Positions 10,779-34,928 of a stretch of 59,519 nucleotides of DNA are shown here, piece by piece (within the stretch, counting starts at the first letter, position 1; each line of letters opens with the position of its first letter). Position numbers and translations under genes: made by a program. Source of the DNA: Verrucomicrobiota bacterium (GTDB taxonomy: Bacteria; Verrucomicrobiota; Verrucomicrobiia; Opitutales; Opitutaceae); assembly GCA_025362555.1 (NCBI GenBank), contig JANYFP010000072.1, positions 1 to 59,519 of the forward strand, written 5' to 3'. Under the pieces are notes generated by a model. The model saw only the letters and a program-made list of their open reading frames with translations. It was not told where the DNA came from and did not search any database.

Positions 10779-10811
10779 GGGACGAAGAGCGGTTCTGTTG
10801 GGGCGGTCTGC
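10779..10811 (-). promoter_or_regulatory. LytTR-type direct-repeat operator (21-bp period)
   Basis: Sense strand GCAGACCGCCCC-N9-GCTCTTCGTCCC, about 108 bp upstream of the paralog 1 start. Confidence 0.65.
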
Positions 10812-10903
10812 TGAGTGGCCTCCGGATTTTCCTTCGCGCACACCGCGATCGACTGGCCTCTCCGGCGGTTTGAGCTCGCGAAGGACGGGAGATTTGGGGG
10901 CAT

Positions 10904-10938
10904 AAAAAAAGACGGCGGCGAATTTCGCCACCGTCTTT
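10904..10938 (-). terminator. Terminator of outer-membrane barrel paralog 2
   Basis: Minus strand AAAGACGGTGGCGAA-A-TTCGCCGCCGTCTTTTTTT, nearly identical to the paralog 1 terminator. Confidence 0.85.
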
Positions 10939-11020
10939 GCTTTGTAGAATAACGCTGCCGAAGCCCCGCGGGAATCGATTTGGTCTTTCGTCAGTGCCGT
11001 TCTACGGATGAAAACTTAGC

Positions 11021-12157
11021 TCAGAGTTTATAGCTGAAACTCAGCATGATCAGATAATCGGCGAACGCTGCATCGCCTTGGCTGTAGACGCCGGTGGCCC
11101 AGGTCTTTTGCTTGTCTGGAACACTCTGGAGGCGATCACGCTGAATGGCATAGGGCACGTAGAGTCGCGCGGACCAATTTTTCCGGTTGATGCTGATGCC
11201 TGGTTCGATGGCGACCGAATATCCCGGCCGGCGGAAGCCATTGCTGCCTCCGATCAAATCGTACACCGCGACACCTTCGGCGCGCAGGCCGAGGCTTAGC
11301 AATATCCCCGAGGAGCCACCGAAAGCATATTCCACCCCGGTGCGACCCAGGTAGGTATCAGCAATCGACATGATCGTTTCATAGGTGCCGGAACGGAACG
11401 TGGGAACTCCGTTGGTCTCCTGCGGGGTGATCGTGTAGTTGGCTGCGGCGAAAGCAGTGAAGCCGGCGCCCAATTGACGGTAGCCGGAGACGCTCAGGAT
11501 GATCCCATAACCGCCGGTACCCGGCTGAATCGATTGGTCGACGGTTTTCTCGACCGCGAAAACCTGGCCGGAAGCCTTGTCGAATGATTGAAATGTGTCG
11601 CGTACGTCCTTTTTGCCGGTCGGGAGAGACAAGCCCAAACCGAGTTGGATGTTACCTTTGGACGACGTCGCCGGATCGAAGACCCACGCGTTGCCGACAA
11701 CGCTGATGTCGGCGAGGCCGGTTGCTTGGGTGTGATAGCGTTGGAAAACTACGCCGGCTACATTCTTCAGAGTTTGCGAACGATCATGGGAAACAAAGGG
11801 AACCGTGATCGAGACACTGTAACGGGGGGAGATGGTATAGTTCAGGCCGAGATCGGTGAAGCTCGAGCGGTTGATCACCTGATCTCCGGCCGCATCGCGT
11901 TGGGCTTGGTAAGCGACGCCAACATAATGGCGGTCGGATTGAAACCAGCGGTAGGAGACGGAGAGGTCCCAAGCGTGGGCCTGATCGCCCTGCTCGATCG
12001 CGCAATTCATACCGCTGCCGTGAGCGGCAACGCAGCCTTGGGCGTGCGCTTGGGCGGTGGAAAATAGTACCAAGGCACTCAGCGTGAGAGTGCGGACGTG
12101 CTGCTTGGCGAAAGCCAAGAGGGGACGAATGGAACGGGAAGTAACGGAGGTTTGCAT
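11021..12157 (-). CDS. Outer-membrane beta-barrel 'transporter', paralog 2
   Basis: Highly similar to 9559-10671 (shared VSYRWFQSDRHYVG, QRDAAGDQVINRSSF, RRPGYSVAxEPG); ends FSYKL. Confidence 0.78.
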   Translation of the reverse strand: MQTSVTSRSIRPLLAFAKQHVRTLTLSALVLFSTAQAHAQGCVAAHGSGMNCAIEQGDQAHAWDLSVSYRWFQSDRHYVGVAYQAQRDAAGDQVINRSSFTDLGLNYTISPRYSVSITVPFVSHDRSQTLKNVAGVVFQRYHTQATGLADISVVGNAWVFDPATSSKGNIQLGLGLSLPTGKKDVRDTFQSFDKASGQVFAVEKTVDQSIQPGTGGYGIILSVSGYRQLGAGFTAFAAANYTITPQETNGVPTFRSGTYETIMSIADTYLGRTGVEYAFGGSSGILLSLGLRAEGVAVYDLIGGSNGFRRPGYSVAIEPGISINRKNWSARLYVPYAIQRDRLQSVPDKQKTWATGVYSQGDAAFADYLIMLSFSYKL

Positions 12158-12280
12158 GTTGGTGGGTTAGTGTTCTGAGCCCAGAACACTTCGTCGTCAC
12201 CGGGGTCAGTTGGCGGCAACCAGTTCTAGGCTCATTAGCGAAAACGCTACGTAGAATAAGTTGGGGTCGAGAAGCGCTTA

Positions 12281-12313
12281 GGGGCGAGTTGCCTTCAGGG
12301 CGGGACGAGTTGC
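12281..12313 (-). promoter_or_regulatory. LytTR-type direct-repeat operator (21-bp period)
   Basis: Sense strand GCAACTCGTCCC-N9-GCAACTCGCCCC, about 124 bp upstream of paralog 2. Confidence 0.75.
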
Positions 12314-12395
12314 TTTGGGGGCACCTTTTGTGGGCGCGGTGGCGCACCTTGAATGCTCTAACGACGCACCGGCCCGTATAATATCACTGGCTATT

Positions 12396-12474: not shown

Positions 12475-12583
12475 ACTCCAGTGTCCAGCAAAAGTCTAAA
12501 TCTTAAGAGCCGTTGGTATAACTCCAGGTCTTCGTGGCCGGTCGGGGACGAGTAAGGCGCGAGTGTCCGCAAAAAATTAAAGT

Positions 12584-12609
12584 CGGCAGGCACGGAGGCC
12601 TGCCGCTAC
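12584..12609 (-). repeat. REP element, family A
   Basis: Minus strand GTAG-CGGCAGGC-CTCCGT-GCCTGCCG, with related copies at 34538, 34725 and 43087. Confidence 0.8.
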
Positions 12610-12625
12610 TCGGAATCCACGCGAA

Positions 12626-15600: not shown

Positions 15601-15934
15601 ATTTAAAGGGTGCAACCTGCAGATACAACGCGCAGGGGCCATTCCTTGACACGGAAAAAATATCGGGCCGTCCGTCACGGTTGAAGTCGGCGACCACGAT
15701 GCCCGTCTCAACCGCGCCGAGGGTGAGCTCACGGAAACGGTTACCCCACATGCGCGGGTCATTGAAAACATTCGGCACGGCCACGCCGGTGTCGGCCGGG
15801 TCGAGCATTGAAAAGAGTTTGGCTCCCGCCGGGGCGGCGGTCCGCGGATGGAGTGGGGTGGCGGTGTAGTCCGCTGCGAAGGCACCGGTCGTGGCGCCGA
15901 GGAGCGCGGCAAGGAGAAGCGTGGATTTGAACAT
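12626..15934 (-). CDS. Large secreted FG-GAP/VCBS-repeat protein with central ASPIC/UnbV domain (CRTAC1-like)
   Basis: Signal peptide, many DxN/DxDGxxD Ca-binding repeats in two blocks, and an ASPIC/UnbV segment (GIGAELRI..VHFGLG..IKWPRG) between them. Confidence 0.9.
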   Translation of the reverse strand: MFKSTLLLAALLGATTGAFAADYTATPLHPRTAAPAGAKLFSMLDPADTGVAVPNVFNDPRMWGNRFRELTLGAVETGIVVADFNRDGRPDIFSVSRNGPCALYLQVAPFKFTEVAHAAGVAVDNEPTSNTGASVVDINQDGWPDIYLCRYDAPNLLFINNRDGTFTESAKAYGLDIKDASVHAVWADYDRDGFIDCYLVTNILDFSKSPQGRRAYLLHNNGNGTFTDVSKAAGIWGLTQGHTALWVDINHDGWPDIYCANDFETPDRLYLNKGDGTFVDVIDERLPHVTYFSMGADAGDINNDGLMDFFITDMRDRNHPEFIAGMEEIGRGLWEMERVNELIPQYMWNAVYLNTGTDHFAEVAHLTGMDATGWTWSARLGDLDNDGRLDAFVTAGMIRNFIDADLVDKQNTAPTLGARAAVWKNAQPRHETTLAYRNLGNLNFADVSKEWGLDHDGVSFGCALADLDGDGDLDLVFANYNAPPTIIRNDTTTGHRTNIKLSGHAPNLDGIGAELRIETASGVQVRQLFTERGIVASEPPLVHFGLGADPTIKKLTIKWPRGQVQVLENIPADQLLTITEPALVEGAKPVLSAAVFKTPASPTALFSAPADNLGLKHSNALRPFDEFTRQRLLPRRLNGLGPVLATADVNGDGRDDVFVTGTAGQSGELFLAQADGSFKSAPDQPWSAAIESDDVGAVFLDVNGDKFPDLLIIAGGIQKAAGDPLMNDRLYLNDGHGKFTLAPDGMLPADGESTAAVAVADFDGDGKSDVFVGGRVVPGKYPETPRSFLYHNVGGKLVDVTDELAPGLRKVGMVTAAVWADVDGDKRPDLLVAIEWGPISYWHNTGHGFENLTEKAGLAGITGWWSALTVADVNGDGRPDLIAGNVGLNTKYHASATQPTVLFSGDFDGTGKDQLIEAQYEDGKLVPLRGRSKLAYAFPWLPKKYPSYKAFGQATVEDVFGADHLAKVNKFTATELASGVFINRGKGVFEFQPLPRLAQLAPINSIAARDFDGDGKLDLFCVGNNFGPEATTGRFDGSLGVLLKGDGKGGFTALSPSASGLVVPGEARSVAVVGQTKDGHLTVIVSECAGPVLVFEHKTDRK

Positions 15935-15946
15935 GGAAAAACGGGA

Positions 15947-16783
15947 TTAGGCGGCGAGAACTCTCTCTTGAATGACGACGGGGTGGGAGTGAGTGAGGAG
16001 AAGAGCCAGCGCCAGCGGGGCAAAGTAGCTGCCGAAGCGTTCGATCAATTCCCAGATGGGCGAGCCGGAAACAAGAAATAAGGATTCAGTGGAAATTTTC
16101 CAGAGACAGATCGCGAGCAACAGGGTCGGCCGGGGCCGGAAGAGCACAAGTCCGGCGAGCAGAAACTCGAAAACCCCGACCCAGGGTACGACTGCGGCCG
16201 GGTTTGTGAGATGCAGGGCCGCATAGTGGCGGGCGAGACCGGCCTTGTGCGCGAAAAGACCGAGACCGGCATGGCCGGCGAGCAACGTGAACGTGGTGAG
16301 CCGCAGGATCCACGTGAGCCGGGCTTGGTGGGAAAGAGTATTCCACAGCGAAGGCAGGCGGCTAAACCAAGGTCCGCTTACGCCGATCACCGTGAGAATG
16401 GCCACTGGCACCCCAAAATTACCCGCGCGCTCGAAGAATTCCCAAACCGGTTCACCGGAAAGAGGCCGCAGTAACGCAGTCCAAACAGTCCACACTGCGG
16501 CCCACATAAACAGCGCGCGACTGGGCCGCAACAGGGCAAGAATCCCGATCGTGATATCCATCCACCCGATCCAAGGCATCAGGCGCCAGGCCCACGCTTC
16601 GCCGACGCCGCCGACTGCGAAATACGGGACCCACGCCGCTTTGGTGATGACGCCAAAAGCACCATGGCCGATGAAACAGCCGGCCATTCCGATTCGCAGG
16701 ATCCACGGAATTGCGCCGGCGGTGGCAGCATCGGCCGATGCTAAGTTCCCGTCTGACGGCAGACTGGCATTGGAGTACATCAT
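15947..16783 (-). CDS. Integral membrane protein with two internal DoxX-like repeats
   Basis: Repeat 1 LRIGMAGCFIGHG..WEFFERAGNFGVP; repeat 2 LRLTTFTLLAGHA..WELIERFGSYFAP; about 8 hydrophobic segments. Confidence 0.7.
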   Translation of the reverse strand: MMYSNASLPSDGNLASADAATAGAIPWILRIGMAGCFIGHGAFGVITKAAWVPYFAVGGVGEAWAWRLMPWIGWMDITIGILALLRPSRALFMWAAVWTVWTALLRPLSGEPVWEFFERAGNFGVPVAILTVIGVSGPWFSRLPSLWNTLSHQARLTWILRLTTFTLLAGHAGLGLFAHKAGLARHYAALHLTNPAAVVPWVGVFEFLLAGLVLFRPRPTLLLAICLWKISTESLFLVSGSPIWELIERFGSYFAPLALALLLTHSHPVVIQERVLAA

Positions 16784-16882
16784 CGAAGCGTGAGGGAGGC
16801 CGAGGTCCTGCGTTGATTTAAATTTTCACTGACAGGAATCGGGCGCGATGAAAGCCAGCGAGCCCTCGGTACAGAAGGAAAA

Positions 16883-18157
16883 TCAGGGCTTTATTCCGTC
16901 CTTAACCGGCTGGAGCGAGTGTTCGAAAACCCAATCGGCTATCTTGATGCCGGCTTTCTGGCCTTCGAGGTTGGCGGACATGGTATGAATGCCGCCATAG
17001 ATGCGGCTCATGCCGATTTCGCGGCGTGCATCCGATAATTTCTTGAAGGTGCGGACCGCGCCAGGCAGTCCGTCGGAGGTGATCGTGAATTCGATGTCGT
17101 CGCTGCCAAACCAGAGCTCGAGCAACCGCGAGGCTGCACCGGAGAATGTACTGTGGCCCGAGGTGTAGTCCGGGTGCGCTGGCGACGTCATGTTGGGAAT
17201 GAAATCGGGGTTGATGATAATCAAGGGATTGCTCTTCCGATCGCTTTCCCGGATGGCGGTTTCGGGCCGCCATGTGCTGTAGAAAAATTTTGAATCCCAG
17301 CATGAGATACCTGCATCAGCGCAGGCGAAATTCAGCATAGCGAACAGGCGGGCGCACTCTGCGGTGCCGAGATTGTTACGCTTGGCTAGGTCCTGGGCGA
17401 TAACGCACCAGTGTCCGGCGGGAGTAGCCGTGCCAAGATCGTCGGCCCAGAACGGCGTGGACAGAGTCTGGTATTCTGTGCGGTCAGCGCCGTCGCGCGG
17501 CCCCACTTTGGTGACAAAGGCGATTTCTTCGGCGTATTCCTTGGAGTCGATGCGCTGTGGTGGTGGGGCGCGGAACTGACTGGGCGAGGTCATGACGAAC
17601 GGGGTGGTGGTGGCAACCTGTGGCACAACCGGCGGACGGAAGCCTGGAGCGGTTTCGCGCCATTTTCCCTGATCTTTGCTGCTGAAAGTGCCTTCAGCGG
17701 GCTTGTTCCAGCCGCTTTTTGCGCGTTCTGCGAGGACGAGTTCAGCGACGTGTTTGCCCCACGCGATGCCATTGGTTTTTTCCGGACCATCGGCAATGGC
17801 CGAGAGGGCTTTGTCATAGGCGAGCTGGAAGTTGCGGGGATTGGAGGATTGGCCCCAAAGCGCGTTGAGCACGGTGAATCCGGCTCTGGCGATGGCGGCG
17901 TCCAGATTGCTGTCGGCCGGCGCGCGTTCATTGATTAGCCAGCCCTGATGATCGTGCGTGATGCCGTTAACAGCATCGTAGATCGCGGCGTGGAAAGTCG
18001 CGATGTGCAACGATGCGATCGGCGGTGGATTGCGTGAAAGCCGGGTGGCGTCGAGCACTTGGTCGTTCCAAAAGAGAACGGCGTTTTCGCCGAAGGCGAA
18101 TGGGCTGCTGAGTGAAATGGCGGCGAGCGCCATCACGATGATGCGGGGGAGTTTCAT
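16883..18157 (-). CDS. Secreted vanadium-dependent haloperoxidase (PAP2 superfamily)
   Basis: Vanadate-binding motifs DSKFFYSTWRP, HPDYTSGHS and SRIYGGIH. Signal peptide from ATG 18157 and N-terminal NAVLFWN helix typical of bacterial VHPOs. Confidence 0.88.
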   Translation of the reverse strand: MKLPRIIVMALAAISLSSPFAFGENAVLFWNDQVLDATRLSRNPPPIASLHIATFHAAIYDAVNGITHDHQGWLINERAPADSNLDAAIARAGFTVLNALWGQSSNPRNFQLAYDKALSAIADGPEKTNGIAWGKHVAELVLAERAKSGWNKPAEGTFSSKDQGKWRETAPGFRPPVVPQVATTTPFVMTSPSQFRAPPPQRIDSKEYAEEIAFVTKVGPRDGADRTEYQTLSTPFWADDLGTATPAGHWCVIAQDLAKRNNLGTAECARLFAMLNFACADAGISCWDSKFFYSTWRPETAIRESDRKSNPLIIINPDFIPNMTSPAHPDYTSGHSTFSGAASRLLELWFGSDDIEFTITSDGLPGAVRTFKKLSDARREIGMSRIYGGIHTMSANLEGQKAGIKIADWVFEHSLQPVKDGIKP

Positions 18158-18254
18158 GCTTGAAGGGGTACGTTGCGGGGTTGGATCACCAGCGTGGAAG
18201 CGAAAATGAATCAGGGGGAAATTGCGCGAAAATTCCAAGGGGATAAATCCCGGA

Positions 18255-18287
18255 GGGGCGAGTTGCCGCCGCAGTGGGATGAAATGA
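18255..18287 (-). promoter_or_regulatory. LytTR-type direct-repeat operator (21-bp period)
   Basis: Sense strand TCATTTCATCCC-N9-GCAACTCGCCCC, about 98 bp upstream of the haloperoxidase. The proximal box with flanks (AGGGGCGAGTTGCC) is identical to 12280-12293. Confidence 0.65.
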
Positions 18288-18306
18288 AAGCGGTGGCGAC
18301 ACCCGC

Positions 18307-18346
18307 CAAAAACACAGCCCCGGGAGTGACTTCACTCATCCGGGGC
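18307..18346 (-). terminator. Rho-independent terminator
   Basis: Minus strand GCCCCGG-AT-GAGTGA-AG-TCACTC-CCGGGGC followed by TGTGTTTTT. Confidence 0.7.
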
Positions 18347-18411
18347 GTATACCCAGTGAACCCTAACGGAGGTGAAGGTATGATTCACTTGCCCGCGTAG
18401 TAAATTCAACT

Positions 18412-18444
18412 GTGGCCAGTAGCTAGCAGGGAGGGACGAATGGC
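18412..18444 (-). promoter_or_regulatory. LytTR-type direct-repeat operator with no adjacent protein gene
   Basis: Sense strand GCCATTCGTCCC-N9-GCTACTGGCCAC, followed 4 nt later by a TTGAAT (-35-like) hexamer. Confidence 0.5.
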
Positions 18445-18592
18445 TGGATTTCCCGCGATTTGGACACGAATTTCCATGCTCGCCCTAGAATTACTCTGTA
18501 ACGAATCGCTCTCCAATTCCGCCCACAGGGAGGCAAGAGGACGATCTTAGGTCCAGTTTGCGGAGGCCTGGGCTTGCACTGTTAACCGTGGA

Positions 18593-19366: not shown

Positions 19367-19395
19367 GATCGGGAGAAGTTAACGGGGAGAATGAT

Positions 19396-21807: not shown

Positions 21808-22277
21808 CGAGCCGGAGAACTATGAAGGGTGGGCGCATTTGAAATAGTTATGGGGTCAAACGCCGCATCGCCGTGGCTATTCGCTAATTTTCCGGGGTGA
21901 AGGCACGGAGCCTTTTTCACGGTTTCATTTCTCGGATCCCGTTTTGGAGTGATTCAGTTTGGTTGGCGGTGGAGGGCTTGCTTGTCCGATCGAAGCCCTT
22001 GGCCAAGGGGGGGGAAACCCCGATGGTTCGGGGCAAGGTCGTTGTTGGCTGCTGCCGGCAACGGCAGTTCTGGCCGTCGCCAAAGCAAATCGCGGCATGA
22101 AGTCGCTCCCTCCTCGACGCGTGGTGCGTGCCATCTGCTGTTGTGAAATGAGTCCGCGCTTGGCGGATTTTACCTCGCCAGCCGAGGCCTTTTCGCCTAT
22201 CAAGCTCTTGTTTCCCGCTGAGCTGATCTCTTCTTGTTCCGCCCTCTCCACGCTTTCTGTTTTTGATTACTCCTCTC

Positions 22278-24419: not shown

Positions 24420-24462
24420 GCGGAACGCGGGGAGTGAGTGAAGCGTGTGCTTCAGCGGTAAA

Positions 24463-24540
24463 TGTGGGCGGGGTGCCCTCACCCCGCAGGTTTGGGAATT
24501 CGATGGGCACGCCTCGCGGGGTGAGGACATCCCGCCCACA
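24463..24540. repeat. REPIN, family C (inverted pair)
   Basis: TGTGGGCGGGGTGCCCTCACCCCGC ... GCGGGGTGAGGACATCCCGCCCACA. Confidence 0.8.
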
Positions 24541-24547
24541 ACTGGAG

Positions 24548-24615
24548 GTAGGTGGCGCGCTTGCCGCGCCACGGTCCGATCAGTTCGATCGTTCGGCGGC
24601 GAGCGCACTCACTAC
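24548..24615. repeat. REPIN, family B (inverted pair)
   Basis: GTAGGTGGCGCGCTTGCCGCGCCAC ... GCGGCGAGCGCACTCACTAC, homologous to 34600-34714. Confidence 0.75.
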
Positions 24616-24655
24616 GGGATTAATCCTGCCGCCGCGCGGCACCACGGCGCGCGCC

Positions 24656-27361
24656 TCACGCCCGGCGCTCGAGTGCGTTCGCGACGGCGTCGAGTAAGGA
24701 TTCGCTCGTGAAAGGTTTTTGCAGCGGGCCAAACAGTCCGGCTTCCTGGATGGCGCGGGAGTCCAGATTGCCGCCAAAGCCGGTCGCGAGAATAATTGGA
24801 ATACCAGGCCTGACCCCTCTGATCTCAGCCGCCAGTTTGGTGCCTTTGATGTGCGGCATCGTGAGGTCGGTGATGACCAGATCGAAAATCGCGGGGTTTT
24901 CATGAAAGACCTTCAACGCCAGCACCGGATCGTTGAAAGGTTTCACCCGATAACCGGCCCGGCGCAGCACGTTATCGATGACGAATAGCACCAGCTCTTC
25001 ATCATCCACGACCATGACGCACCGGTCTGCGCCAACTTGCGGCAAGGGAGAGAGCGAGGAGGGGGTTGGCGGTGTCGCCGCGCCCTCGATCGCATCCTTG
25101 CCGTTGATGGGGAAATAAATTTGGAAGGACGTGCCTTTGCCGGGCACACTGTAAACCACGATCGCTCCGCCGTGCTGCTGCACAATGCCGTGGACCACCG
25201 CGAGGCCCAAGCCGGTGCCCTTGCCCGTATCTTTGGTGGTAAAGAAGGGTTCGAAAATCCGGCACAAGGTTTGCTCGCTCATGCCTGAGCCCGTATCGGT
25301 CACCCATAAGCGGAGAAACCGACCGGGTTGGAGCTGCGGTTTCTGCTTCATCATTTCACGGTCAACCCAGACTTCGTCGAGAATGAATTCCAGGCGTCCG
25401 CCCTGTTCTTCCATCGCATGGGCGGCGTTGGTGGCGAGATTGACGACGATCTGGTGGAGCTGGGTGACATCGGCGGAAATTTTTGGCAGGTGGTCGGGTA
25501 ACTGGGTGCGAATCTCAATCGAGGTGGGCAGGACCGAGCGCAGCAGTTTGATCGAGTCCCGCACCACGGGCGCGAGATCGGTGGGCTCGAGCTTCTGCTC
25601 TGAGCGGCGGCTGAAGGTGAGGATTTGTTTGACCAGATCCTTGGCGCGATGCGATGCGACCAGGGTTTGCCCCAGTAATGACCGCGCGGGGTGTTGCGCC
25701 GGGAGTTCCATCTCGGCGAGCTGCGCGTTGCCGATAATTGCTGTGAGAAGATTGTTGAAATCGTGCGCGACGCCCCCCGCCAGATTGCCGACGGCTTCCA
25801 TTTTCTGTGACTGGCGGAGCTGCGATTCGAGCCCCGCATGGGCTTCCTCCGCCTTTTTTTGCTCGGTGATGTCCTGCATCGAACCGTACAACCGCACGGG
25901 CTGTCCCGCTTGGTTGAACTCGACCGCACCAGTGACCAGCACCCAGCGGAAGGATCCGTTGGGGCGGACAATGCGGTATTCGCTGGACGGATATTCATCG
26001 CTGTTCTTGGCGGCCGCGATGCGTTGCTCGACGGCGGCGCGGTCGGAGGGAAAAATCTGGCGGAAGAAATTCTCCAACGTGGTGTCGATGCTGCGTGGCT
26101 CCTGGCCGAGGATGCGGAAAATCTCGTCGGACCCGCTGACCGCGCGCGTTATCAGGTCGATTTCCCAACTGCCGATGTGTGCGATGCGCTGGGAGTCGTT
26201 GAGCAGCGCACGATTCTGGCGCAGGGCCTCATCGGCCGCTTTGCGCTCGACCAGACTGTTCGCCAGTCCGCAATAGCCGGTGATTTTCCCTTCGGAATCG
26301 CGCAGGGCGGAGACGATGAGATAAACCGGGATGCGTTGGCCGTTTTTATGGATGAGAGTCCATTCGCGGGCCTCGGGCAGCCGGCGCTGCGGCTTCGCGG
26401 TGAAGACGGCAAAACCGGGTGCAATCGTGGTGTTGAATTCACGTGAAAGGGCCGCCGCGTAGAGGGCAATTTCGTCGGCGTCGTGCCACAGCAAGAGCGC
26501 CTTTTGGCCGACAATCTCGGCGGAGGAATAACCGAGCAGTTGTTCCGCCGCCGGATTAAAGGTCGCGATGGTTCCGTCGAGTGTGGTGGCGATAACGAGC
26601 ACTTCCGTGGCATCGAGGATCGCGCGCTGAAAGGCGGCGGATTTGGCGATATGTTGGTCGCGGGTGGCGATGCTCGCCAGCATTTCGTTGAAGGTGGTCG
26701 CGAGTTCGCCGACTTCGTCCGTTCCGGTAACGGGCGTTCGGAGACTGTAATCGCTGGTGAGGTGGACCTGGGCAGCGGTTTCGGCGAGTTGCACGATCGG
26801 ACGCGTGACGGTCCGTTGCAGCAGACGGCTCAGAAAAATACTGCCCAGGGTGAGCACCACCAGCACTACGCCGAGGATGGTCAGTGATTCGCGCAGGCCG
26901 CGACGATACGCGCTGACATCGGTTTCCAAGAGGAGCCGGCCGATCAGCCGGTTTTCGTTGCGGAGTTCGTAGACGAGCAGCGCACGATCGGCGGCGCGGT
27001 AGAACCCCACGGGGTGCAGTTCCTGGCGGAAGTGCAAGGTCGTGCCGGTGCGGGTATAGCTGGCGAAGGGTTGTTCCGTGCCGTCGGGCTCCGTCCGGAA
27101 AACGGCGGCGCCAAGAATCGTACGACTCGGTTCCAGGCGGGCGAGATTTTGACTGGCGACGTCCGGTTGATCGAAATCGAGCGCGGCGACGAGGCTGAAC
27201 GCGAGTGAATCCGCGAGAGCTTCGAGGGTGCTCCGCGCGCGGGTTTCGGAAGAGCGGTATTCGAAGAGGGAGAGGGTTACGGCCGCAGTTACCAGCGCCA
27301 GCGCGAAGGCGCCGAACAGCGTCAGCGTCACTTTGCGGCGAATGGAAAGGGCGGCTTTCAT
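24656..27361 (-). CDS. Hybrid sensor histidine kinase (periplasmic CHASE8-like sensor, HAMP, two PAS, HisKA/HATPase, receiver)
   Basis: Two TM helices, HAMP (DEVGELATTFNEML), PAS domains, H-box VAHDFNNLL, G-boxes DTGSG/GTGLGL, receiver DLVITDLTMP. Confidence 0.93.
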   Translation of the reverse strand: MKAALSIRRKVTLTLFGAFALALVTAAVTLSLFEYRSSETRARSTLEALADSLAFSLVAALDFDQPDVASQNLARLEPSRTILGAAVFRTEPDGTEQPFASYTRTGTTLHFRQELHPVGFYRAADRALLVYELRNENRLIGRLLLETDVSAYRRGLRESLTILGVVLVVLTLGSIFLSRLLQRTVTRPIVQLAETAAQVHLTSDYSLRTPVTGTDEVGELATTFNEMLASIATRDQHIAKSAAFQRAILDATEVLVIATTLDGTIATFNPAAEQLLGYSSAEIVGQKALLLWHDADEIALYAAALSREFNTTIAPGFAVFTAKPQRRLPEAREWTLIHKNGQRIPVYLIVSALRDSEGKITGYCGLANSLVERKAADEALRQNRALLNDSQRIAHIGSWEIDLITRAVSGSDEIFRILGQEPRSIDTTLENFFRQIFPSDRAAVEQRIAAAKNSDEYPSSEYRIVRPNGSFRWVLVTGAVEFNQAGQPVRLYGSMQDITEQKKAEEAHAGLESQLRQSQKMEAVGNLAGGVAHDFNNLLTAIIGNAQLAEMELPAQHPARSLLGQTLVASHRAKDLVKQILTFSRRSEQKLEPTDLAPVVRDSIKLLRSVLPTSIEIRTQLPDHLPKISADVTQLHQIVVNLATNAAHAMEEQGGRLEFILDEVWVDREMMKQKPQLQPGRFLRLWVTDTGSGMSEQTLCRIFEPFFTTKDTGKGTGLGLAVVHGIVQQHGGAIVVYSVPGKGTSFQIYFPINGKDAIEGAATPPTPSSLSPLPQVGADRCVMVVDDEELVLFVIDNVLRRAGYRVKPFNDPVLALKVFHENPAIFDLVITDLTMPHIKGTKLAAEIRGVRPGIPIILATGFGGNLDSRAIQEAGLFGPLQKPFTSESLLDAVANALERRA

Positions 27362-28083
27362 AGTGATCGCGCCGGCCGCGGCGTGGTCAGGGGTAAGGAA
27401 TTTTCAAGCAGACCGGGGGTGGCCTTCAGGCCTTGGGCCGTGAGCAAACCGGGGTTGAGGCGGTAGCGAATGCTTTGATTTTGCAACAACAGCTCAATTG
27501 CGGCGGCGACCGCAGTTGAGCCCTTCTCGTGGTAGAAAACGGTGAGCACCGGGCGATCGACAAAGATTTTTGCGGCGGCGGCGGCGCTCGCTCCGGAGGA
27601 GGGCAGCAGGACGATTTGGCAACCGCTCAAATCGTCGGCGTCGGTCGCGTGGACGATGACGATCAGCCGGCCTCGGATGAACATTCCTTTGACGATGGGA
27701 TCAAGTGAGTCCCGAACGCGCTCATTGTTCAGCACACCGATCCGCCACGGTTCGCCGGGTGGCGGGACCGCTTCGGGCCATTCGATATACTTAACAAAGT
27801 TGAGGAGGTAGGCGGCGATGAGGGATTCGGGATCGCTTTTCGCGGGCAGCGTGCGCTTCGTCGGAGTGTCGGCGGTGTCGGCGGCCCGGGCGGCAGTTGG
27901 CGCGGAAATTATCAGGGCCAAAATAAACAGCAGCTGGCCGCAATGCGGGAGAGAGGCCTGGCGACGCGAAACAATTGGCACCGTTATCGTGGTCCGGCTG
28001 GAGGGGAAAGCGGGCTGTGAATGGAAGCGCATCAACGGTGGCTCCATCGTTGGTGGAAGTGAGACGGACGGGCAAGCTCGCAT
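27358..28083 (-). CDS. yfiR: YfiR/HmsC (DUF4154) family periplasmic protein
   Basis: AAYLLNFVKYIEWP signature, CQIVL, and C-terminal IRYRLN..GL. Stop overlaps the kinase start (ATGA). Start uncertain. Confidence 0.8.
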   Translation of the reverse strand: MRACPSVSLPPTMEPPLMRFHSQPAFPSSRTTITVPIVSRRQASLPHCGQLLFILALIISAPTAARAADTADTPTKRTLPAKSDPESLIAAYLLNFVKYIEWPEAVPPPGEPWRIGVLNNERVRDSLDPIVKGMFIRGRLIVIVHATDADDLSGCQIVLLPSSGASAAAAAKIFVDRPVLTVFYHEKGSTAVAAAIELLLQNQSIRYRLNPGLLTAQGLKATPGLLENSLPLTTPRPARSL

Positions 28084-28192
28084 CTGTGAGATTCAGGGCT
28101 TCGTTCAGCCTCGAATGGGGCGGCTGCGGCGTTCGCGTGGTGGCGAAAACGGCCCGACCGATCATGAAGCGAAATTAACGGTGGCGCGGGAA

Positions 28193-30352
28193 TCATTGTT
28201 TCCAGCTTATCCGCAGTTCGACGCGTCGGGGAATTTCAACCGATGGTCCAGCCAGGCCCGGCCGATTTTCCAGATGTTGTGGGTCGAACAGGTTTCGGCC
28301 GACCAGTGCCAGCTCCCAAGCCGGTTGCGGTCGCCATGCCAGTTGCGCCGAGGCTTCAGTGTAGTGTGCAATCTGTAAACTCGGCACGTCGTCGATCCAA
28401 CGGATCGCCGCCGTCAATTCCCAGTGGGCTCCGAGCTGCAGCACTGAACCGATCATGGCCGTCCAGTGCGGGATGTTGCGGAGTGAATTCACAAACTTGA
28501 TGGGATCGGGCGTTGTTACCTGGGTCTCCGGGTTTACTTCGGCGAGGCTCAAATTAAGCCGCCACGTCGGGAGCGTCTGCCAGGTGACGGCGAGTTCTCC
28601 GCCAGTGGATCGCAGCGACATTCCGTTGTCCTCGGGCAGCGGAATAATCAGGGCCGGTACGGAGGCGGATTGGCTGATGGGGGGCGCGTTGGTGACTTTG
28701 ATGAGTTGTTCGTAACGGTTGAGAAACACACTCGCGCTCACCGTCCAGGTGGGTTGTGGCGCCCAGCGCCAACCGGCATCGAGGGCGTTGAGGGTTTCAG
28801 CGTCGAGGGCTGGATTCCCGAGCCCGCGCAGCGCAGTGGGCAGGAGTGGGTCGCGCACGCCGGGGGGCAACACGACGGCGTCGGTGATATTTGAGTTCTC
28901 CGTTATCGCCGGTATCCGCACGGCGCGCGACCAGCCGGCCCACAAGGTGTGTTGGCGGGTGGGGAACCACGCTAACTTTACACTCGGTTGGGGCTCGAAG
29001 CCGGTGAAGTTGTTGTGCTCAAGTTTGATTCCGGCGGTCAGCTTGAGCTGGTTCGGGATGAGGGTAAATTCGTCCTGCGCAAATCCGCTCCACTGCGCGA
29101 CGTGGTGCTGGTCGTGGTCAAAGGCGATCCAGCGATTGCGCGTGTGAACTTCAGCGTAACGCGCGCTGGCACCCCAGTCGATGGCGTGCCGGGTGCCGAG
29201 TGTGAGGGATTCCTGCAGGTCAACCTGCGCCCGGTTCGAAACGAAATCAAAGATGGCGCCGTGCCGTGCGTCCGTATCGAACCATGCGTCAAGGCGCAAC
29301 GTGCTCTCTGCCCCGATTGCCCCGTCCCAGCGCGCGAGCAGATTGCCTCCTTGCACCTGTTCGCCACTCCGGTCGGTCACCTGGTAAGCGGGCGGAGCGG
29401 TCAGGGTGGGGAGCGTGACCGTCAGGTCGTTGTCTCCCCGGTAAGCTTCACCGGAGAAAGTCCAGTTGGTCGCGGCACTGTCTTCATGATCAAAACGGAA
29501 ACCAATCCGGCCGATTCTGACGGCATCTTCGGCGGAGCCGCCGGTCGGCAGGCGGGTGCCGTCGTCCGCAGTGAATTTGGCGTAAACGCGCCCGGCCGTC
29601 TGCTCATTGAGCAGCCAGCCGTGTCGCAACTCGGTGTTTTCTTCGCCATGGCCGATGGTCACGCTAACGCGGTCGCCGAGCGTTTCGTGGGCGGAGCGAG
29701 TCAGGATGTTGACGACGCCATTGACGGCATTCGCGCCCCAAATTGAACCGCCGGGACCCAGGACCACTTCGATGTGGTCGAGATCGGCCAGCAGATAATC
29801 CTGGACGTCCCAAAACACGCCGCCGAACACCGGGGTGTAAACCGATCGCCCGTCAATCATGACGAGCAGCTTGCTGGCGAACTGACTCCGGGAACCGCGG
29901 GCACCGATGCCCCAGGTGGAGGCATTGATCTGTCCGACGTTGATCCCCGGGATCCAGCGCAGTGCCTCGGGAATCGTGTCTGCACCCGTGCGCACTGCAT
30001 CCTCACCGGAGAGGACAAAGACAGCGGAAGGAGCGCGCCACGCCAACTCAGGGCGATTGGAAACGCTCACGACCTTGACCTGCGATAATTGGCCAAGATC
30101 AAGCGCACTGAAATCAACCGGTGGAGTCAGGTTTTGTGCTACGAGCGGGAGGGCGCCGCAAACGACGAGTGCGAGCCCGGCCAATGCGCGCGATCGGATG
30201 CGGTGGAACGCGGTCTTCGGACGCGTTGGAGCAATGCGTCCACGAAAAAATAGGTCCAGCGGCCGGGCTTCAGCTTGAGTGGGATCGAGGCAGATTGGGC
30301 GGGCGCGGCTTATCATCGGAAATGTTTGGTCAGTTTCGCGTAGACGCCGCAC
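28193..30352 (-). CDS. TonB-dependent receptor (YfiR-associated subtype)
   Basis: DFSALDLGQL box, plug IEVVLGPGGSIWGANAVNGVVNI, GNPALDAE and GRNLFD. True start probably downstream of 30352. Confidence 0.9.
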   Translation of the reverse strand: MRRLRETDQTFPMISRARPICLDPTQAEARPLDLFFRGRIAPTRPKTAFHRIRSRALAGLALVVCGALPLVAQNLTPPVDFSALDLGQLSQVKVVSVSNRPELAWRAPSAVFVLSGEDAVRTGADTIPEALRWIPGINVGQINASTWGIGARGSRSQFASKLLVMIDGRSVYTPVFGGVFWDVQDYLLADLDHIEVVLGPGGSIWGANAVNGVVNILTRSAHETLGDRVSVTIGHGEENTELRHGWLLNEQTAGRVYAKFTADDGTRLPTGGSAEDAVRIGRIGFRFDHEDSAATNWTFSGEAYRGDNDLTVTLPTLTAPPAYQVTDRSGEQVQGGNLLARWDGAIGAESTLRLDAWFDTDARHGAIFDFVSNRAQVDLQESLTLGTRHAIDWGASARYAEVHTRNRWIAFDHDQHHVAQWSGFAQDEFTLIPNQLKLTAGIKLEHNNFTGFEPQPSVKLAWFPTRQHTLWAGWSRAVRIPAITENSNITDAVVLPPGVRDPLLPTALRGLGNPALDAETLNALDAGWRWAPQPTWTVSASVFLNRYEQLIKVTNAPPISQSASVPALIIPLPEDNGMSLRSTGGELAVTWQTLPTWRLNLSLAEVNPETQVTTPDPIKFVNSLRNIPHWTAMIGSVLQLGAHWELTAAIRWIDDVPSLQIAHYTEASAQLAWRPQPAWELALVGRNLFDPQHLENRPGLAGPSVEIPRRVELRISWKQ

Positions 30353-30753: not shown

Positions 30754-31530
30754 TCAGGTGCCGGTCGCGAACTTCCCGAGTTGACTGCGCAGACTGCGGC
30801 TGAGCGGCAGCTTCGTGCCTTCGCGCAACAACACGGTGTAGTCACTGTGCAGCGCCGGCTGGATCTCTTTGATCTGATCGAGATGTACAATCGCAGACCG
30901 GTTGACGCGCACAAAACTGGTGGTTCCCAAACGTGCCTCGATCGCACTCATCGTCTCACGCAACATCAAGCGTCCGGTTGTCAGATGCAGCACCACGTAG
31001 TTGTCGGCTGCTTCCACCCAAACGATTTCATCCGCTTTCAAAAACACGAGACGGCCGTCGGCTTTCACCGTCAGGCGTTCATTTTTCAATGCGGGTGTTG
31101 GCGACGGGGTTTCCGCGATTTCTGCTTCCGTTTTTTGGGTGGACTCGACCGGGACCGGGCGGCGCAGGCGGTGATATTCCTGCGCGCGACGGAGGGCGGT
31201 TTGCAAGCGCTCGCGATCAAAGGGCTTCAGGAGATAATCGATCGCCTGCACTTCAAACGCATCGAGTGCGAACCGCTCGTGAGCAGTCGCAAAAATAATC
31301 CCCGGCCGGTTTTCCTCCGGGATTCCCGCGAGGACCTGCATCCCGTTGCACCCCGGCATTTGCATATCGAGAAACACCAGATCCAGCGGCGTGTTTTTGA
31401 TGGTGGTGACCGCGTCGAGGCCGTTGCCGCATTCGCCGACAACTTCGATGGCGGTTTCCGTGCGTAACATGCCCAGCAACCGTTCGCGGGCGAGCGGTTC
31501 ATCGTCAACAATCAGAGCGCGGAGTTTCAT
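30754..31530 (-). CDS. LytTR-family DNA-binding response regulator
   Basis: LIVDDEPLAR, FLDMQMP, DYLLKPF; LytTR domain WVEAADNYV..FVRVNRSAIV..LPLSRS. Confidence 0.95.
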   Translation of the reverse strand: MKLRALIVDDEPLARERLLGMLRTETAIEVVGECGNGLDAVTTIKNTPLDLVFLDMQMPGCNGMQVLAGIPEENRPGIIFATAHERFALDAFEVQAIDYLLKPFDRERLQTALRRAQEYHRLRRPVPVESTQKTEAEIAETPSPTPALKNERLTVKADGRLVFLKADEIVWVEAADNYVVLHLTTGRLMLRETMSAIEARLGTTSFVRVNRSAIVHLDQIKEIQPALHSDYTVLLREGTKLPLSRSLRSQLGKFATGT

Positions 31531-31568
31531 GAGGGAAAAGTTGAGAAGTGAGTTTGAACGATCTGAAC

Positions 31569-31598: not shown

Positions 31599-31625
31599 CA
31601 AGAATGATAGTGACCATCAATTGAT

Positions 31626-32708
31626 TCATACTGGCAAGGTCAGCTTGATTTCCAAACCACCCTTGGCGTGGTTGGCCAGCTCGAAGCGGTGTCGGTCCCC
31701 GTAAAGTTCGCGCAGGCGGGCGCGGGTGTTGCCTAGTCCAATCCCTTCACGCGTGAAACCGCCGGCTGGCTGGCCCGCACCGTTGTCCCGCACGATCAGG
31801 ACCAGGCCCGCTGGCTCACGTTTCACGATTATCTCAATGTGCCCCGGCCGCGCGTGCGGCTCGAGGCCATGCCGAATGGAGTTTTCCACCAACGGCTGAA
31901 GAATGAGACTCGGCACGTCCGTTTCCAAAGCGGCGGGATCAACGTCGATCGCCACCGTGAGCCGATCGCGAAACCGGATGCGCTCGATCTCCAGGTATTT
32001 TTCAATGAACGCGATTTCCTCCCGGAGCTTAGTGAGCGGTTGCCCAGGATGATGCATCGTGAGTCGCAGGAGTTCGCTCAGCCGCACGAGCATCCGGTCG
32101 GCGGCATCGACATCGCTGTGCATGAGTGACGCGATGCCGTTGAGCGTGTTGAAAAGGAAATGGGGCTTCAGTTGGCGGAGCAACGCTTGCAAGCGCGCCT
32201 CCGTGAGATGTTTTTCCAATTCCAGATTGTGCACGGTGCGCTCGTGGTATTTGCGATAATAATCAATCGCGTGACTGGCCGAAATAATGACCCCGTAAAT
32301 GAGGAGATTGAAGGGAAAGGTTTTAACCAACAGTGGCTGGAAGACTTCGAGAAACGTCACTGACTCATCGATCAGCGCACTATGAATCTGGCCGACCAGT
32401 GCGCGGAGCGTGACGTAAATCAGCGAAAAAAACAGCGCAGCAATCAAATGAATGCCGGCCGTGCGCCAGCGTGCGCCACTCTCGGGCGGGAATCGCCGCG
32501 CGAATACCAAAATCGGCACCGAGAGCACCGCCCACACATACCAATCCGCCAATGAAAGACTGATCGCCTGCCCCCACGTGACCGACCGACCCAGCAGTGT
32601 ACTCGACAGATAAAACTGACTCGCGAACGCCAGTCCAACCAGCGTCCAAAAAATGACGACGCCCGCCAGGCGGGAAAGGGAACGAAAAAGCGGGCGGGCG
32701 GCAGACAT
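31626..32708 (-). CDS. LytS/YehU-type sensor histidine kinase
   Basis: About 4 TM segments, QLKPHFLFNTLN H-box, LQPLVENSIRHG, DNGAG and GIGLGNTRARL. Confidence 0.93.
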   Translation of the reverse strand: MSAARPLFRSLSRLAGVVIFWTLVGLAFASQFYLSSTLLGRSVTWGQAISLSLADWYVWAVLSVPILVFARRFPPESGARWRTAGIHLIAALFFSLIYVTLRALVGQIHSALIDESVTFLEVFQPLLVKTFPFNLLIYGVIISASHAIDYYRKYHERTVHNLELEKHLTEARLQALLRQLKPHFLFNTLNGIASLMHSDVDAADRMLVRLSELLRLTMHHPGQPLTKLREEIAFIEKYLEIERIRFRDRLTVAIDVDPAALETDVPSLILQPLVENSIRHGLEPHARPGHIEIIVKREPAGLVLIVRDNGAGQPAGGFTREGIGLGNTRARLRELYGDRHRFELANHAKGGLEIKLTLPV

Positions 32709-32853
32709 CGCGTAAAATGGTTTGCGGTCGATCAAGGAGTGACAAGCAATACCTGTCCATGCCCTTTCGGGCTTATTTCCGGTGAGCCGCCTCCTTTCTC
32801 CTCCCAGTATTCCTGCCATCCCGCCTGCGGCCGGGACCCCGCAACATGGAGCC

Positions 32854-34521
32854 ATGCCACCGTTGTTGCCCGTGGTGCTGACTCTCGTGGTCGCGGCGAT
32901 TGTGTTGAGCGTCGTCTTCGCACTCTTCTTTCCCGTCACCGGTCCGACTCAACCGCTGTCTGCTGCGCGCTTCACAAATGTGACCGAAGCGTCCGGCATT
33001 CGGTTTGTTCAACACGCGGGTGCGCAGGAATCCCCCACCACGCTCGGTGGCGCGGTCGTCGTGCTCGATTACGACAACGATGGGCACCCGGATCTTTTTT
33101 TCGTCAATGGCACCGCGTGGCCTTGGGAGGACCTCGGCGCTTGGACCCACGCCTCGGCGTGTACGCTTTATCATAACGACGGCACCGGGCATTTCACCGA
33201 CGTCTCGCAGGCGGCGGGCGTTGATCTCGTCATGCAGGGGATGGGTGCGGCGGTGGGTGATTTCGATAACGATGGGTTTCCGGATATTTTCATCACTGGC
33301 GTCGGACAGAATCATCTCCTGCACAATAAGGGCGATGGCACGTTTGAAGATGTCTCCCTCGCGGCCGACGTGGCGGGCGATGATCACACGTGGAGCACGG
33401 GTGCGACGTGGATCGATTATGATGGCGATGGATTGCTGGACCTCGTCGTCGCGCATTACGCCCGGTGGCCGCAGGAAGTGCCGCTCGCGATGGCGTTCAC
33501 GATCGCGGACCTTGGGCGCTCTTACGGTGCGCCCACCGGATTTGTCAGTGCGGTTCCGTCGGTGTACCACAATCTGGGTCATGGAAAATTTGCGCTCGTG
33601 CCTGGCAGCGCCGGTTTGCGCAACCTCGACCCGCAAACCGGCATGCCGGTGGCCAAGACCCTGGCCGTCGTGCCGGTCGATGCCAACGGCGATGGCAAAC
33701 TCGATTTGCTTTTCACCTATCACACGAGTGAAAACGCCCTCTTCCTCAATCAAGGTGACGGGACGTTCAAGAAATGGACCGGCGGGGCCGAGAAACGCAA
33801 TGAAGGCGCGGCTGCAGGCTTGGCGTCGGCAAACATTCTGCCCTTTGCGAACGCTTCGGCGACGGATGAACGTCTGGCCGCCTTTCAATCTGCCGGGGCA
33901 CTCGACGCAGTCAATTCGGGTGAGCCGCAGCTTCACTTGCTTGGCAAAGTGGGCGCGGCGTTGCTCGATTACGAGTTCGACGGTCACCTCGTGCTGTTTT
34001 CCGGCAACGGTCACGCGGAACCGGACCTGAATAAATTTGAGCAAGGCCGTAATTTTTCCGCGCCGCCGCAATTGTTCTTGTCCCGCAACAACCGCTGGTT
34101 GCCCGCGCCCGTGGCGGAAGGTGGCACTTGGGCGCGCCCCCTTGTCGCCCGCGGGATCGCCGTGGCGGATCTCGACGGCGATGGCGATGCGGATGTGATC
34201 ATCGTGCAGAATGACGGCCCCGCGCTCATTCTGCGCAATGACCAGCGCAGCGGCCTGCCGTGGTTGCGCCTGCGGCTCATCGCGACGCGGAGCCAGCCTG
34301 ATGCGGGTGGTGCGCGCGTGGAAGTGCACACGCCGCGCCGCATTCTCACGCGCACCGTTGCGCCCGCGATGGGTTTTATGGCTCAGTCAGAAACCACGCT
34401 GACTTTTGGGCTGGGCGACGATGCGCGGGTCCGGAAAATTGTCATCCAATGGCCCTCTGGCCAGCGCCAGGAACTCCGCCAATCCACCGTCAACCAGACC
34501 GTCACGATCCGCGAGCCGTGA
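32854..34521 (+). CDS. Membrane-anchored FG-GAP + ASPIC/UnbV (CRTAC1-family) protein
   Basis: N-terminal hydrophobic anchor, DYDNDGxPD repeats, C-terminal DAGGARVEV..TFGLG..IQWPSG. Start uncertain (32782 or 32854). Confidence 0.88.
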   Translation: MPPLLPVVLTLVVAAIVLSVVFALFFPVTGPTQPLSAARFTNVTEASGIRFVQHAGAQESPTTLGGAVVVLDYDNDGHPDLFFVNGTAWPWEDLGAWTHASACTLYHNDGTGHFTDVSQAAGVDLVMQGMGAAVGDFDNDGFPDIFITGVGQNHLLHNKGDGTFEDVSLAADVAGDDHTWSTGATWIDYDGDGLLDLVVAHYARWPQEVPLAMAFTIADLGRSYGAPTGFVSAVPSVYHNLGHGKFALVPGSAGLRNLDPQTGMPVAKTLAVVPVDANGDGKLDLLFTYHTSENALFLNQGDGTFKKWTGGAEKRNEGAAAGLASANILPFANASATDERLAAFQSAGALDAVNSGEPQLHLLGKVGAALLDYEFDGHLVLFSGNGHAEPDLNKFEQGRNFSAPPQLFLSRNNRWLPAPVAEGGTWARPLVARGIAVADLDGDGDADVIIVQNDGPALILRNDQRSGLPWLRLRLIATRSQPDAGGARVEVHTPRRILTRTVAPAMGFMAQSETTLTFGLGDDARVRKIVIQWPSGQRQELRQSTVNQTVTIREP

Positions 34522-34537
34522 GGGCGGTTACTCTACC

Positions 34538-34751
34538 GTAGCCACAGGCCTCCGGCCGGTGGGATTGGGTCGAGGTGAAATTGTGGTGTGTGTCGTGGGG
34601 TAGGTGGCGCGCTTGTCGCGCCACACCGTTGTTTGCTTGCTGCAAACCCGGTGTTGGTCCGCACCAGCCGTGCGGCAAACGGTTCGATCATTATGCGGCG
34701 AGCGCGCAACCCACGGGAGCCAAGCCGGCAGGCACGGAGGCCTGCCACTAC
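34538..34751. repeat. Nested REPIN: family A pair enclosing a family B pair
   Basis: Family A at 34538-34563 (GTAGCCACAGGCCTCCGGCCGGTGGG) and inverted at 34725-34751; family B at 34600-34624 and inverted at 34695-34714. Confidence 0.8.
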
Positions 34752-34895
34752 ACGCCACGTTATTTCGCAGACACCGCCTAGCGGTTAACCTTCCAGGGTT
34801 CTCTGGCTCTATTTGAGCGGGCTCGGCTCAGTCGCGCAGGCGGCATCACGCAGTGCGTTCGTTTTCGCCCTCTGGGCCCACTCATTCCCCGAAAA

Positions 34896-34928
34896 GCAGT
34901 TCGCCCCTGAAATCCAGCAGCTCGCCCC
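34896..34928 (+). promoter_or_regulatory. LytTR-type direct-repeat operator (21-bp period)
   Basis: GCAGTTCGCCCC-N9-GCAGCTCGCCCC, about 117 bp upstream of the porin gene and oriented with the + strand gene. Confidence 0.75.

Follow-up and report, generated by a model that had tools for sequence, protein, structure and literature searches.

The known case of a regulatory RNA under a LytTR-type response regulator is RNAIII, which is driven by AgrA. The published LytTR promoters covered in the available text of PMC6193735, among them the operators of streptococcal HdrRM and BrsRM and those of AgrA and ComE, have 9-bp repeats separated by a 12-bp spacer, and hence a period of 21 bp, 4–11 bp upstream of the -35 element. 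In E. coli, YpdA/YpdB couples a LytS-type kinase to a receiver-LytTR regulator, and the YpdB site at the yhjX promoter, GGCATTTCAT, as listed in Table 1 of PMC4847170, also has a period of 21. In P. aeruginosa, the kinase AlgZ of the AlgZ/AlgR pair has about 360 aa, four N-terminal helices and a PHFLFN H-box, as described in the accessible sections of PMC4064291. The same features recur in a 59,519-nt stretch of DNA (contig JANYFP010000072.1; hereafter the window) from a member of the Opitutaceae in the Verrucomicrobiota, where a first-pass annotation had noticed a 12-bp direct repeat at an exact period of 21 bp and proposed a LytTR regulon. We conclude, with a probability of roughly 0.65, that these boxes are the operator of the neighbouring LytTR regulator and drive envelope genes together with a small RNA that would block translation of a TonB-dependent receptor.

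In the genome designated G000, which comprises 5.19 Mb in 588 contigs and is 94% complete, the window corresponds to contig C304. All five 33-bp box pairs described in the first-pass annotation are present exactly at their coordinates; the minus strand carries four of them and the plus strand the fifth (Table 1). The consensus of the boxes is GCRNTTCRYCCC-N9-GCRNYTSRYCCC. The distance of about 98–124 bp to a start codon that it gave for four of them was borne out, since these pairs end 107, 123, 97 and 116 nt before genes on the same strand. Its statement that the motif stands before each downstream gene applies to these four pairs but not to the one at 18412–18444, which precedes a short predicted non-coding unit and no gene. 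A sixth pair, at 21852–21884 on the minus strand, had been overlooked. It lies so close to the ATG of the gene that follows that a near-leaderless mRNA is implied for the FG-GAP/ASPIC and FKBP operon.

A matrix trained on the five window sites alone was applied to the surroundings of regulator orthologues in relatives (67 loci, 1.03 Mb), with the duplicate loci L019 and L029 dropped before any counts on relatives' loci and sites. At 17 bits or more it gave 86 matches at period 21 against 0–8 at every other period from 13 to 44, and a single match in 27 loci of other phyla. A Gibbs search without prior on the upstream regions of 32 relatives' haloperoxidase genes likewise chose period 21 among 11 periods (9.4 bits versus at most 7.9). 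At 15 bits or more the resulting model matched 29 of the 32 haloperoxidase regions, as opposed to 1/47 for the kinase, 1/71 for the regulator and 1/32 for the large FG-GAP genes; the figures for DoxX and FG-GAP-800 were 3/21 and 3/7. Applied genome-wide, the Gibbs model is register-shifted and unspecific, with 79 matches and just two window sites in the top 16. When the model was rebuilt from 84 relatives' sites, the five window sites ranked 1–5 in the 5.19-Mb genome, a result that is partly circular because those 84 sites had been selected with the window matrix. The next ranks were taken by C344:10125, the sixth window site and C385:6454. The first-pass annotation had proposed a test of intergenic enrichment. 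All eight matches of at least 18 bits are intergenic, in a genome called 75% coding; with the threshold lowered to 14 bits, the genome shows no excess at period 21 (42 matches versus 11–43 at other periods). The lack of enrichment at the low threshold implies a small regulon of about eight promoters. Three further matches were excluded from it, C489:5229 and C539:12574 as lying inside reading frames and C262:8468 as having no -35-like element.

Near the boxes, a PF06580 kinase adjoins a regulator with receiver and LytTR domains, the layout of a LytS/LytTR two-component system. The phospho-acceptor of the regulator, Asp55, is invariant in 8 aligned homologues. Its best NCBIfam matches, BtsR and LytR, fall below their cut-offs (161 vs 246 bits and 151 vs 375 bits), and its closest relatives are in Opitutaceae, Oleiharenicola, Lacunisphaera and Opitutus records. 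To follow regulator and sites together, we used an even draw of 160 genomes of the family, calling an orthologue at E 1e-65 or better, scoring 16 candidates per genome and allowing the box pattern at most two mismatches. The pattern was present in 29/31 orthologue-positive and 23/129 orthologue-negative genomes, and a reversed-pattern control in 14/160. Within the genus the counts were 10/10 and 4/14. Among the regulator-negative genomes, G114 has the orthologue in two pieces (C29:274099-274947) and its box pairs persist before targets. Of the four in the genus, G013 and G020 are fragmented assemblies with sites before the usual targets, G019 has a match before an FG-GAP gene, and G002 has two matches, neither before a usual target. 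Sites also stay with their target genes when these are on other contigs or up to 3 Mb from the regulator, as with the haloperoxidase genes 0.4–3 Mb away in G061, G108 and G167. In genomes that are kin and therefore not independent, this co-occurrence points to the regulator encoded at 30754–31530, which the first-pass annotation had named, as very probably the cognate one. That it binds the boxes and activates transcription from them we consider highly likely by analogy with known LytTR systems. Two genomes, G059 and G139, have sites and a regulator only 41% identical, and related clades may thus read the same boxes.

The promoters themselves can be described from positions outside the trained boxes. 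Across the 84 sites there is a T at +41 in 71, a T at +42 in 70 and a C at +45 in 67, and in most of them a TTTNC -35-like element begins 7 nt past box 2. A weak CANNNT signal follows near +64 to +69. We read the +41/+45 and CANNNT signals as degenerate -35 and -10 elements; the start sites are predicted. At the FG-GAP-800 genes, a candidate start codon lies 43–44 nt from box 2 in 10 of 11 sites (ATG in 6), which fits near-leaderless mRNAs with the boxes at about -77 to -45. A consensus sigma-70 scan called no promoter at the small RNA, as is expected because that promoter would be activator-dependent.

The pair at 18412–18444 is followed, before the next box pair, by TTTACT, CATACCTT, GUUAGGGUU, a GC hairpin and a U-run, and this layout recurs behind one box pair in many relatives. 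At the level of sequence the unit has what a base-pairing small RNA has: a predicted promoter of its own, an unstructured 5' seed and a terminator hairpin. Its fold z-score is -2.6. In 15 aligned copies, 5 of the 9 pairs of the outer stem have changed on both sides, a score reached by 0/500 shuffles; covariation of this kind is what any terminator would show. The hairpin is single copy in G000, which rules out a repetitive extragenic palindromic (REP)-like repeat. Rfam searches of the window and of 9 related loci gave no family at the RNA. A covariance model of the RNA gave one strong match outside its training set, in an unrelated neighbourhood (G076:C75) with a 28-bit box pair 40 nt upstream. 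In 9 of 19 analysed copies the boxes stand back-to-back with a divergent gene, and there the hairpin can only terminate a transcript from the box-pair promoter. These features make it likely that the small RNA is made. No RNA-sequencing run was listed for 15900–19400, which speaks neither for nor against its expression. Related short RNAs with a terminator, mostly with a CAGCAGUAGGGGUUCGG 5' end and with no LytTR box pair, occur at L158, L159, L160 and L161 (G066, G111, G146), possibly as a wider Opitutaceae RNA family under other control.

We sought the target of the RNA through its seed. Of the start regions in G000, those of 3/37 TonB-receptor genes contain the seed complement AACCCTAA, versus 2/3539 for other genes, and the receptor gene at C323:2572 was selected after these counts had been seen. 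Its start region is one of two in the genome with a 9-nt perfect match. The orthologues of this receptor carry AACCCTAACGACC-ATG in genomes whose RNA reads GUC(G/A)AUAGGGUU, and AACCCAAAATATGACC-ATG in those whose RNA shows variants of UCAUA-UUUUGGG. The predicted duplex spans about -20 to +4 of the start codon. Nine predictions were recorded beforehand. Six of them were open to testing, and for these the ranks of the cognate start region among 19 were 1, 1, 1, 1, 2 and 4. The predicted CCCTAACACC was found exactly, as a 10-mer, in G206, and GACTATG in G207 matches CAUAGUC of its RNA; for the remaining three, G202, G203 and G205 have no orthologous receptor at E 1e-92 or better. Over 19 genomes, cognate RNA/mRNA pairs were 2.8 kcal/mol better than expected (permutation p 1e-4; with 14 representatives, p 5e-5). 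There was no covariation with the RNA in 11 control gene families (p 0.28–0.97) or in five other parts of the receptor mRNA (p 0.16–0.67). Targets inside the regulon were rejected, as the start regions of the haloperoxidase, FG-GAP, barrel, porin, kinase and regulator genes showed no covariation. A tree built from 65 receptor fragments unites 18 of the 19 chosen receptors with 7 paralogues in one 25-row group (support 96/65, not starred); the receptor of G143 forms a long branch just outside it. A genome-wide duplex ranking with the RNAs of six relatives put the receptor at 329–857 and was uninformative, its top ranks being long imperfect duplexes. Presence of AACCCTAA at receptor starts did not differ significantly between system-positive and system-negative genomes (4/59 vs 0/30, p 0.19). 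On balance, the compensatory variation makes it more likely than not that the small RNA pairs over the start region of this receptor mRNA (G000:C323:2572, plus strand) and lowers its translation. Start regions of the approximately 3500 called genes in G000 are in general rich in pyrimidines and poor in G and have C at -1 and -2, and GGAGG is not enriched (41 vs 42), so that there is no Shine-Dalgarno signal.

A second, unrelated RNA of about 80 nt with a terminator lies behind the same kind of box pair in five genomes (L057, L059, L063, L101 and L152). Through its GGUUGGU and GCAU stretches it is complementary to the start of a different TonB receptor in 5/5 genomes, and in 4 of the 5 that receptor is the best of the genome's 5–7 receptor loci, an expectation that had not been recorded beforehand. 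From the two RNAs together we lean, by a little, towards the view that the LytTR regulon of Opitutaceae includes a small-RNA arm which needs neither Hfq nor ProQ, and in which at least two unrelated RNAs of about 60–80 nt have come independently, in different genera, behind the same operator, each co-evolved with the start region of a large TonB-dependent receptor.

Several alternatives to the proposed operator and its regulator can be weighed. The boxes could be chance matches or leftovers of promoter duplication; the two barrel genes are indeed tandem duplicates, and low-score matches have no period specificity genome-wide. This explanation is barely credible, as the boxes are conserved where spacers and flanks are not, unrelated gene families stand downstream of the sites, and the period is strict in the held-out loci, in the no-prior search and in spacer length, the pattern occurring in 39/41 regulator-positive genomes with N9 and in 2/41 with N10. 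Another binder is a more serious candidate and still very unlikely. G000 encodes five LytTR domains, and the boxes might be read by one of the four further LytTR proteins, by the full-length paralogue that neighbours the regulator in relatives (many of their loci hold a second regulator, 45–63% identical) or by a non-LytTR factor; the sites beside the distant regulator in G059 and G139 and the lack of a box pair before the kinase-regulator operon itself would fit. On the other hand, G010, G012 and G024, with 3–5 LytTR regulators of other clades each, have no site, the neighbouring paralogue in G000 has lost its DNA-binding domain, and synteny links sites, targets and the kinase-regulator pair. 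What weighs against the assignment to this regulator directly is that 23 of the 129 regulator-negative genomes match the pattern, of which some (G114, G013 and G020) are accounted for, and that 2 of the 31 regulator-positive genomes have no match.

The RNA arm faces more objections. The regulon might be real and the small RNA not, with the hairpin at 18317–18346 serving as the terminator of the upstream operon or as an attenuator of the second haloperoxidase promoter, and the complementarity arising where G/U-rich RNA meets C/A-rich starts. Such a reading would accommodate the same-strand upstream gene that the window shares with 9 further copies of the 19, the covariation common to all terminators, and the base composition of start regions; AACCC is also frequent at receptor starts without the system (11/30 in 5 genomes vs 33/59), and the G000 receptor ranks a modest 74/3619 among start regions by duplex energy. 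We consider it unlikely, since a same-strand gene upstream is lacking in 9 of the 19 copies and the next gene in G001 is convergent, the unit moved together with its boxes in G076, covariation is limited to one segment of the mRNA and absent from the control families, and the predictions recorded beforehand held. Rather improbable, too, is that the RNA exists and acts otherwise, on several receptor or non-receptor targets, by titrating an RNA-binding protein or by activating the receptor. The seed complement is also present at the starts of a second and a third receptor gene and of two non-receptor genes, a paralogous receptor in G013 has a longer match, and several copies have UAGG in the loop; against this, the duplex lies where pairing around a start codon normally blocks ribosomes, as stated in the available portion of PMC12692685, and clade-specific compensatory changes indicate direct pairing with this receptor group. 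Other observations count against the proposed receptor control by the small RNA. Hfq and ProQ were found in 0/5 genomes each (three of them single-contig), and most such RNAs need them. A terminator scan with strict settings gave no call at the hairpin. The covariance model matched 14/80 genomes, leaving most regulator-positive genomes without this RNA family, and no box pair accompanies the four weak matches. In G007, G013, G077 and G143 the pairing is weak, 25–137 of 200 shuffles doing as well, and because the genomes are kin the p-values overstate the case, with perhaps 5–6 independent changes behind them.

Taken together, our results suggest the following course of events for a LytTR operator with a small-RNA arm. 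The kinase (31626–32708) would phosphorylate the regulator, and two regulator molecules in head-to-tail orientation would occupy the 12-bp boxes, which are spaced by two turns of the helix and lie at about -77 to -45 from the start site. Bound there, the regulator would bring RNA polymerase to weak promoters (-35 TTTNCN, -10 CANNNT), and the small RNA made from one of them would pair with the start region of the receptor mRNA and repress its translation. As a guess, the signal may be an envelope cue sensed within the membrane. It is also a guess that the system swaps one uptake receptor for channels of its own and an exported haloperoxidase-family enzyme.

The genes behind the sites were grouped by automatic clustering of the next reading frames of 157 sites of at least 18 bits. 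Haloperoxidase genes account for 59 (paired sites counted twice), barrels for 14, the porin for 12, large FG-GAP genes for 12 (some of them shadow frames), FG-GAP-800 for 11, tetratricopeptide repeat (TPR)/FG-GAP genes for 5, the second regulator for 5 and DoxX-like genes for 4; the rest are small clusters or unassigned. The main target resembles PDB entry 4cit most closely (E 3.6e-28), with the K-x6-RP, SGH and SR-x5-H motifs aligned. We take 4cit/4usz to be the Zobellia iodoperoxidase. The same motifs are also present in PAP2 phosphatases, and the product may be a haloperoxidase or a phosphatase. The barrels have no Pfam match; a confident structural model (predicted local distance difference test, pLDDT, 88.5) matches FapF and a COG4313 channel, and in their Atlas clusters 11–15% of members carry PF13557. 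The barrel genes are tandem duplicates (9559–12157) with one box pair each, and the predicted mature N-terminus is an invariant Gln-Gly-Cys, which might bind metal or be modified. The region of the window holds three FG-GAP/ASPIC proteins. Outside the window, an FG-GAP/ASPIC gene has the box pair at C344:10125 (L226) in front of it and two cytochrome c, beta-propeller or peroxidase-like genes behind it.

Table 1. Box pairs, predicted RNA and genes of the proposed regulon, in window coordinates
Feature	Position	Strand	Details
Box pair	10779..10811	-	Predicted promoter of the second FapF/COG4313-like barrel gene (9559-10671) and a major facilitator superfamily (MFS)/spermidine-synthase fusion gene (6882-9434); -35-like TTTCCT 10771-10766
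Box pair	12281..12313	-	Predicted promoter of the first FapF/COG4313-like barrel gene; -35-like TTCTCG 12273-12268
Box pair	18255..18287	-	Predicted promoter of the haloperoxidase-family/DoxX-like/FG-GAP operon; -35-like TTTATC 18247-18242
Box pair	18412..18444	-	Predicted small RNA promoter; -35-like TTTACT 18404-18399, -10-like CATACCTT 18382-18375
Box pair	21852..21884	-	44 nt before ATG at 21807; FG-GAP/ASPIC and FKBP operon
Box pair	34896..34928	+	Predicted promoter of the porin and transglutaminase-like operon; -35-like TTGTGC 34936-34941
Predicted small RNA, about 60 nt	18308..18370	-	Seed GUUAGGGUU 18367-18359, GC hairpin 18346-18317, U-run 18312-18308
Response regulator, BtsR/LytR-like	30754..31530	-	Pfam PF00072 and PF04397; probable cognate activator
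LytS/AlgZ-type histidine kinase	31626..32708	-	PF06580 and PF02518; four predicted membrane helices (hydropathy), no large periplasmic domain, H-box PHFLFNTL
Exported vanadium-haloperoxidase/PAP2-family protein, main conserved target	16883..18157	-	PF17897 and PF01569, both below cut-off
DoxX-like membrane protein	15947..16780	-	Weak PF13781 match, E 0.002, below cut-off
FG-GAP repeat/ASPIC-UnbV protein, 1102 aa	12626..15934	-	
FG-GAP/ASPIC-UnbV protein, 803 aa	19396..21807	-	Followed by FKBP-type protein 18593-19366
Outer-membrane barrel, FapF/COG4313 fold	11021..12157	-	Tandem paralogue 9559-10671
Porin_5 porin and transglutaminase-like protein	35045..37409	+	Pfam
FG-GAP/ASPIC protein	32854..34521	+	Divergent from the kinase, constant neighbour of the two-component pair; no box pair found before it

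Some further features surround the regulator. Elsewhere in G000, C385:1652-2044 (L225, minus strand) encodes a receiver-only paralogue of it, 56% identical over 124 aa and with no LytTR domain, in an FG-GAP operon with a triple box (C385:6475/6454/6433). This paralogue could serve as a phosphate sink and give negative feedback; many relatives have a full-length second regulator in its place. Between the regulator and the first target operon, the window holds two TonB receptors, a YfiR-like protein and a hybrid kinase (22263–30352), and in most relatives a box pair directly follows the regulator gene. Similar pairs lie near more distant LytS/LytTR genes in three loci labelled Acidobacteriota (L068:8701, plus; L074:8778, plus; L076:8812, minus), two of them before the kinase gene, and the box motif may extend beyond the Verrucomicrobiota. 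The window also contains intergenic, REP-like repeats at 12580–12612 and 34722–34754 (91% identical) and at 24547–24572 and 34599–34624 (96%).

Two things go beyond the first-pass annotation: the Opitutaceae regulon is now defined, and a small RNA is predicted whose seed covaries with a receptor target. A literature search, which mostly did not cover subscription papers, found no description of this LytTR/RNA system, and a 2022 survey gives 8 small-RNA families for the whole Planctomycetes-Verrucomicrobia-Chlamydiae (PVC) group in its available text (PMC9029176). The regulon is defined for genes without known control or function, namely the haloperoxidase-family enzyme, the FG-GAP/ASPIC proteins and the FapF-like barrels; if confirmed, it would be the first regulatory handle on the haloperoxidase and FG-GAP/ASPIC cluster, and a constitutively active regulator would show what the cluster does. 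The small RNA matters more than the operator. It would be the first base-pairing RNA circuit for Opitutaceae, in bacteria whose mRNAs have no Shine-Dalgarno sequence. Seed pairing at pyrimidine-rich starts of this kind without a recognisable Hfq or ProQ would also make the RNA a bait for the missing chaperone. The circuit is directly testable, with a promoter, a regulator, a specific target and natural compensatory variants at hand.

For the RNA, the closest counterparts are OmrA and OmrB of the Enterobacterales, two-component-induced RNAs whose 5' seed represses the TonB receptor mRNAs cirA, fecA, fepA and btuB, according to the accessible part of PMC12692685; the corresponding action here is predicted. 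OmrA and OmrB are controlled by OmpR rather than a LytTR regulator and need Hfq, whereas the Opitutaceae RNA is shorter (about 60 nt), has no Rfam match and comes from a host in which no Hfq, ProQ or Shine-Dalgarno signal was found. Compared with the Agr, Com and LytTR regulatory system (LRS) loci, the Opitutaceae kinase-regulator operon has no box pair of its own, with none in the window and 1/47 among kinase upstream regions, and no peptide pheromone gene was identified there; unlike LRS regulators, the window regulator retains its receiver domain and has a kinase. The first-pass annotation had likened the boxes to the AlgR core, CCGTTCGTC, which is compatible with some box variants, but AlgR sites are often not phased direct repeats, as far as the available text of PMC4064291 goes, and the AlgR targets are unrelated. 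The nearest published site is instead that of YpdB, which by eye differs from the consensus at 2 of 24 positions, both at box position 10, an almost invariant C in the Opitutaceae boxes. YpdB has one target, a transporter, in contrast to at least six promoters of envelope genes and a predicted RNA here, and the window kinase has no GAF or 5TM-LYT domain in Pfam, in which it differs from YpdA. With the AlgR site replaced by that of YpdB as the closest published one, the first-pass assignment to LytTR operators stands on the period of 21, the -35 offset and the co-occurrence with the regulator. On every testable feature the boxes belong to the LytTR tandem-repeat class, with binding by the regulator predicted, and the operator is in itself a new member of this well-known class.

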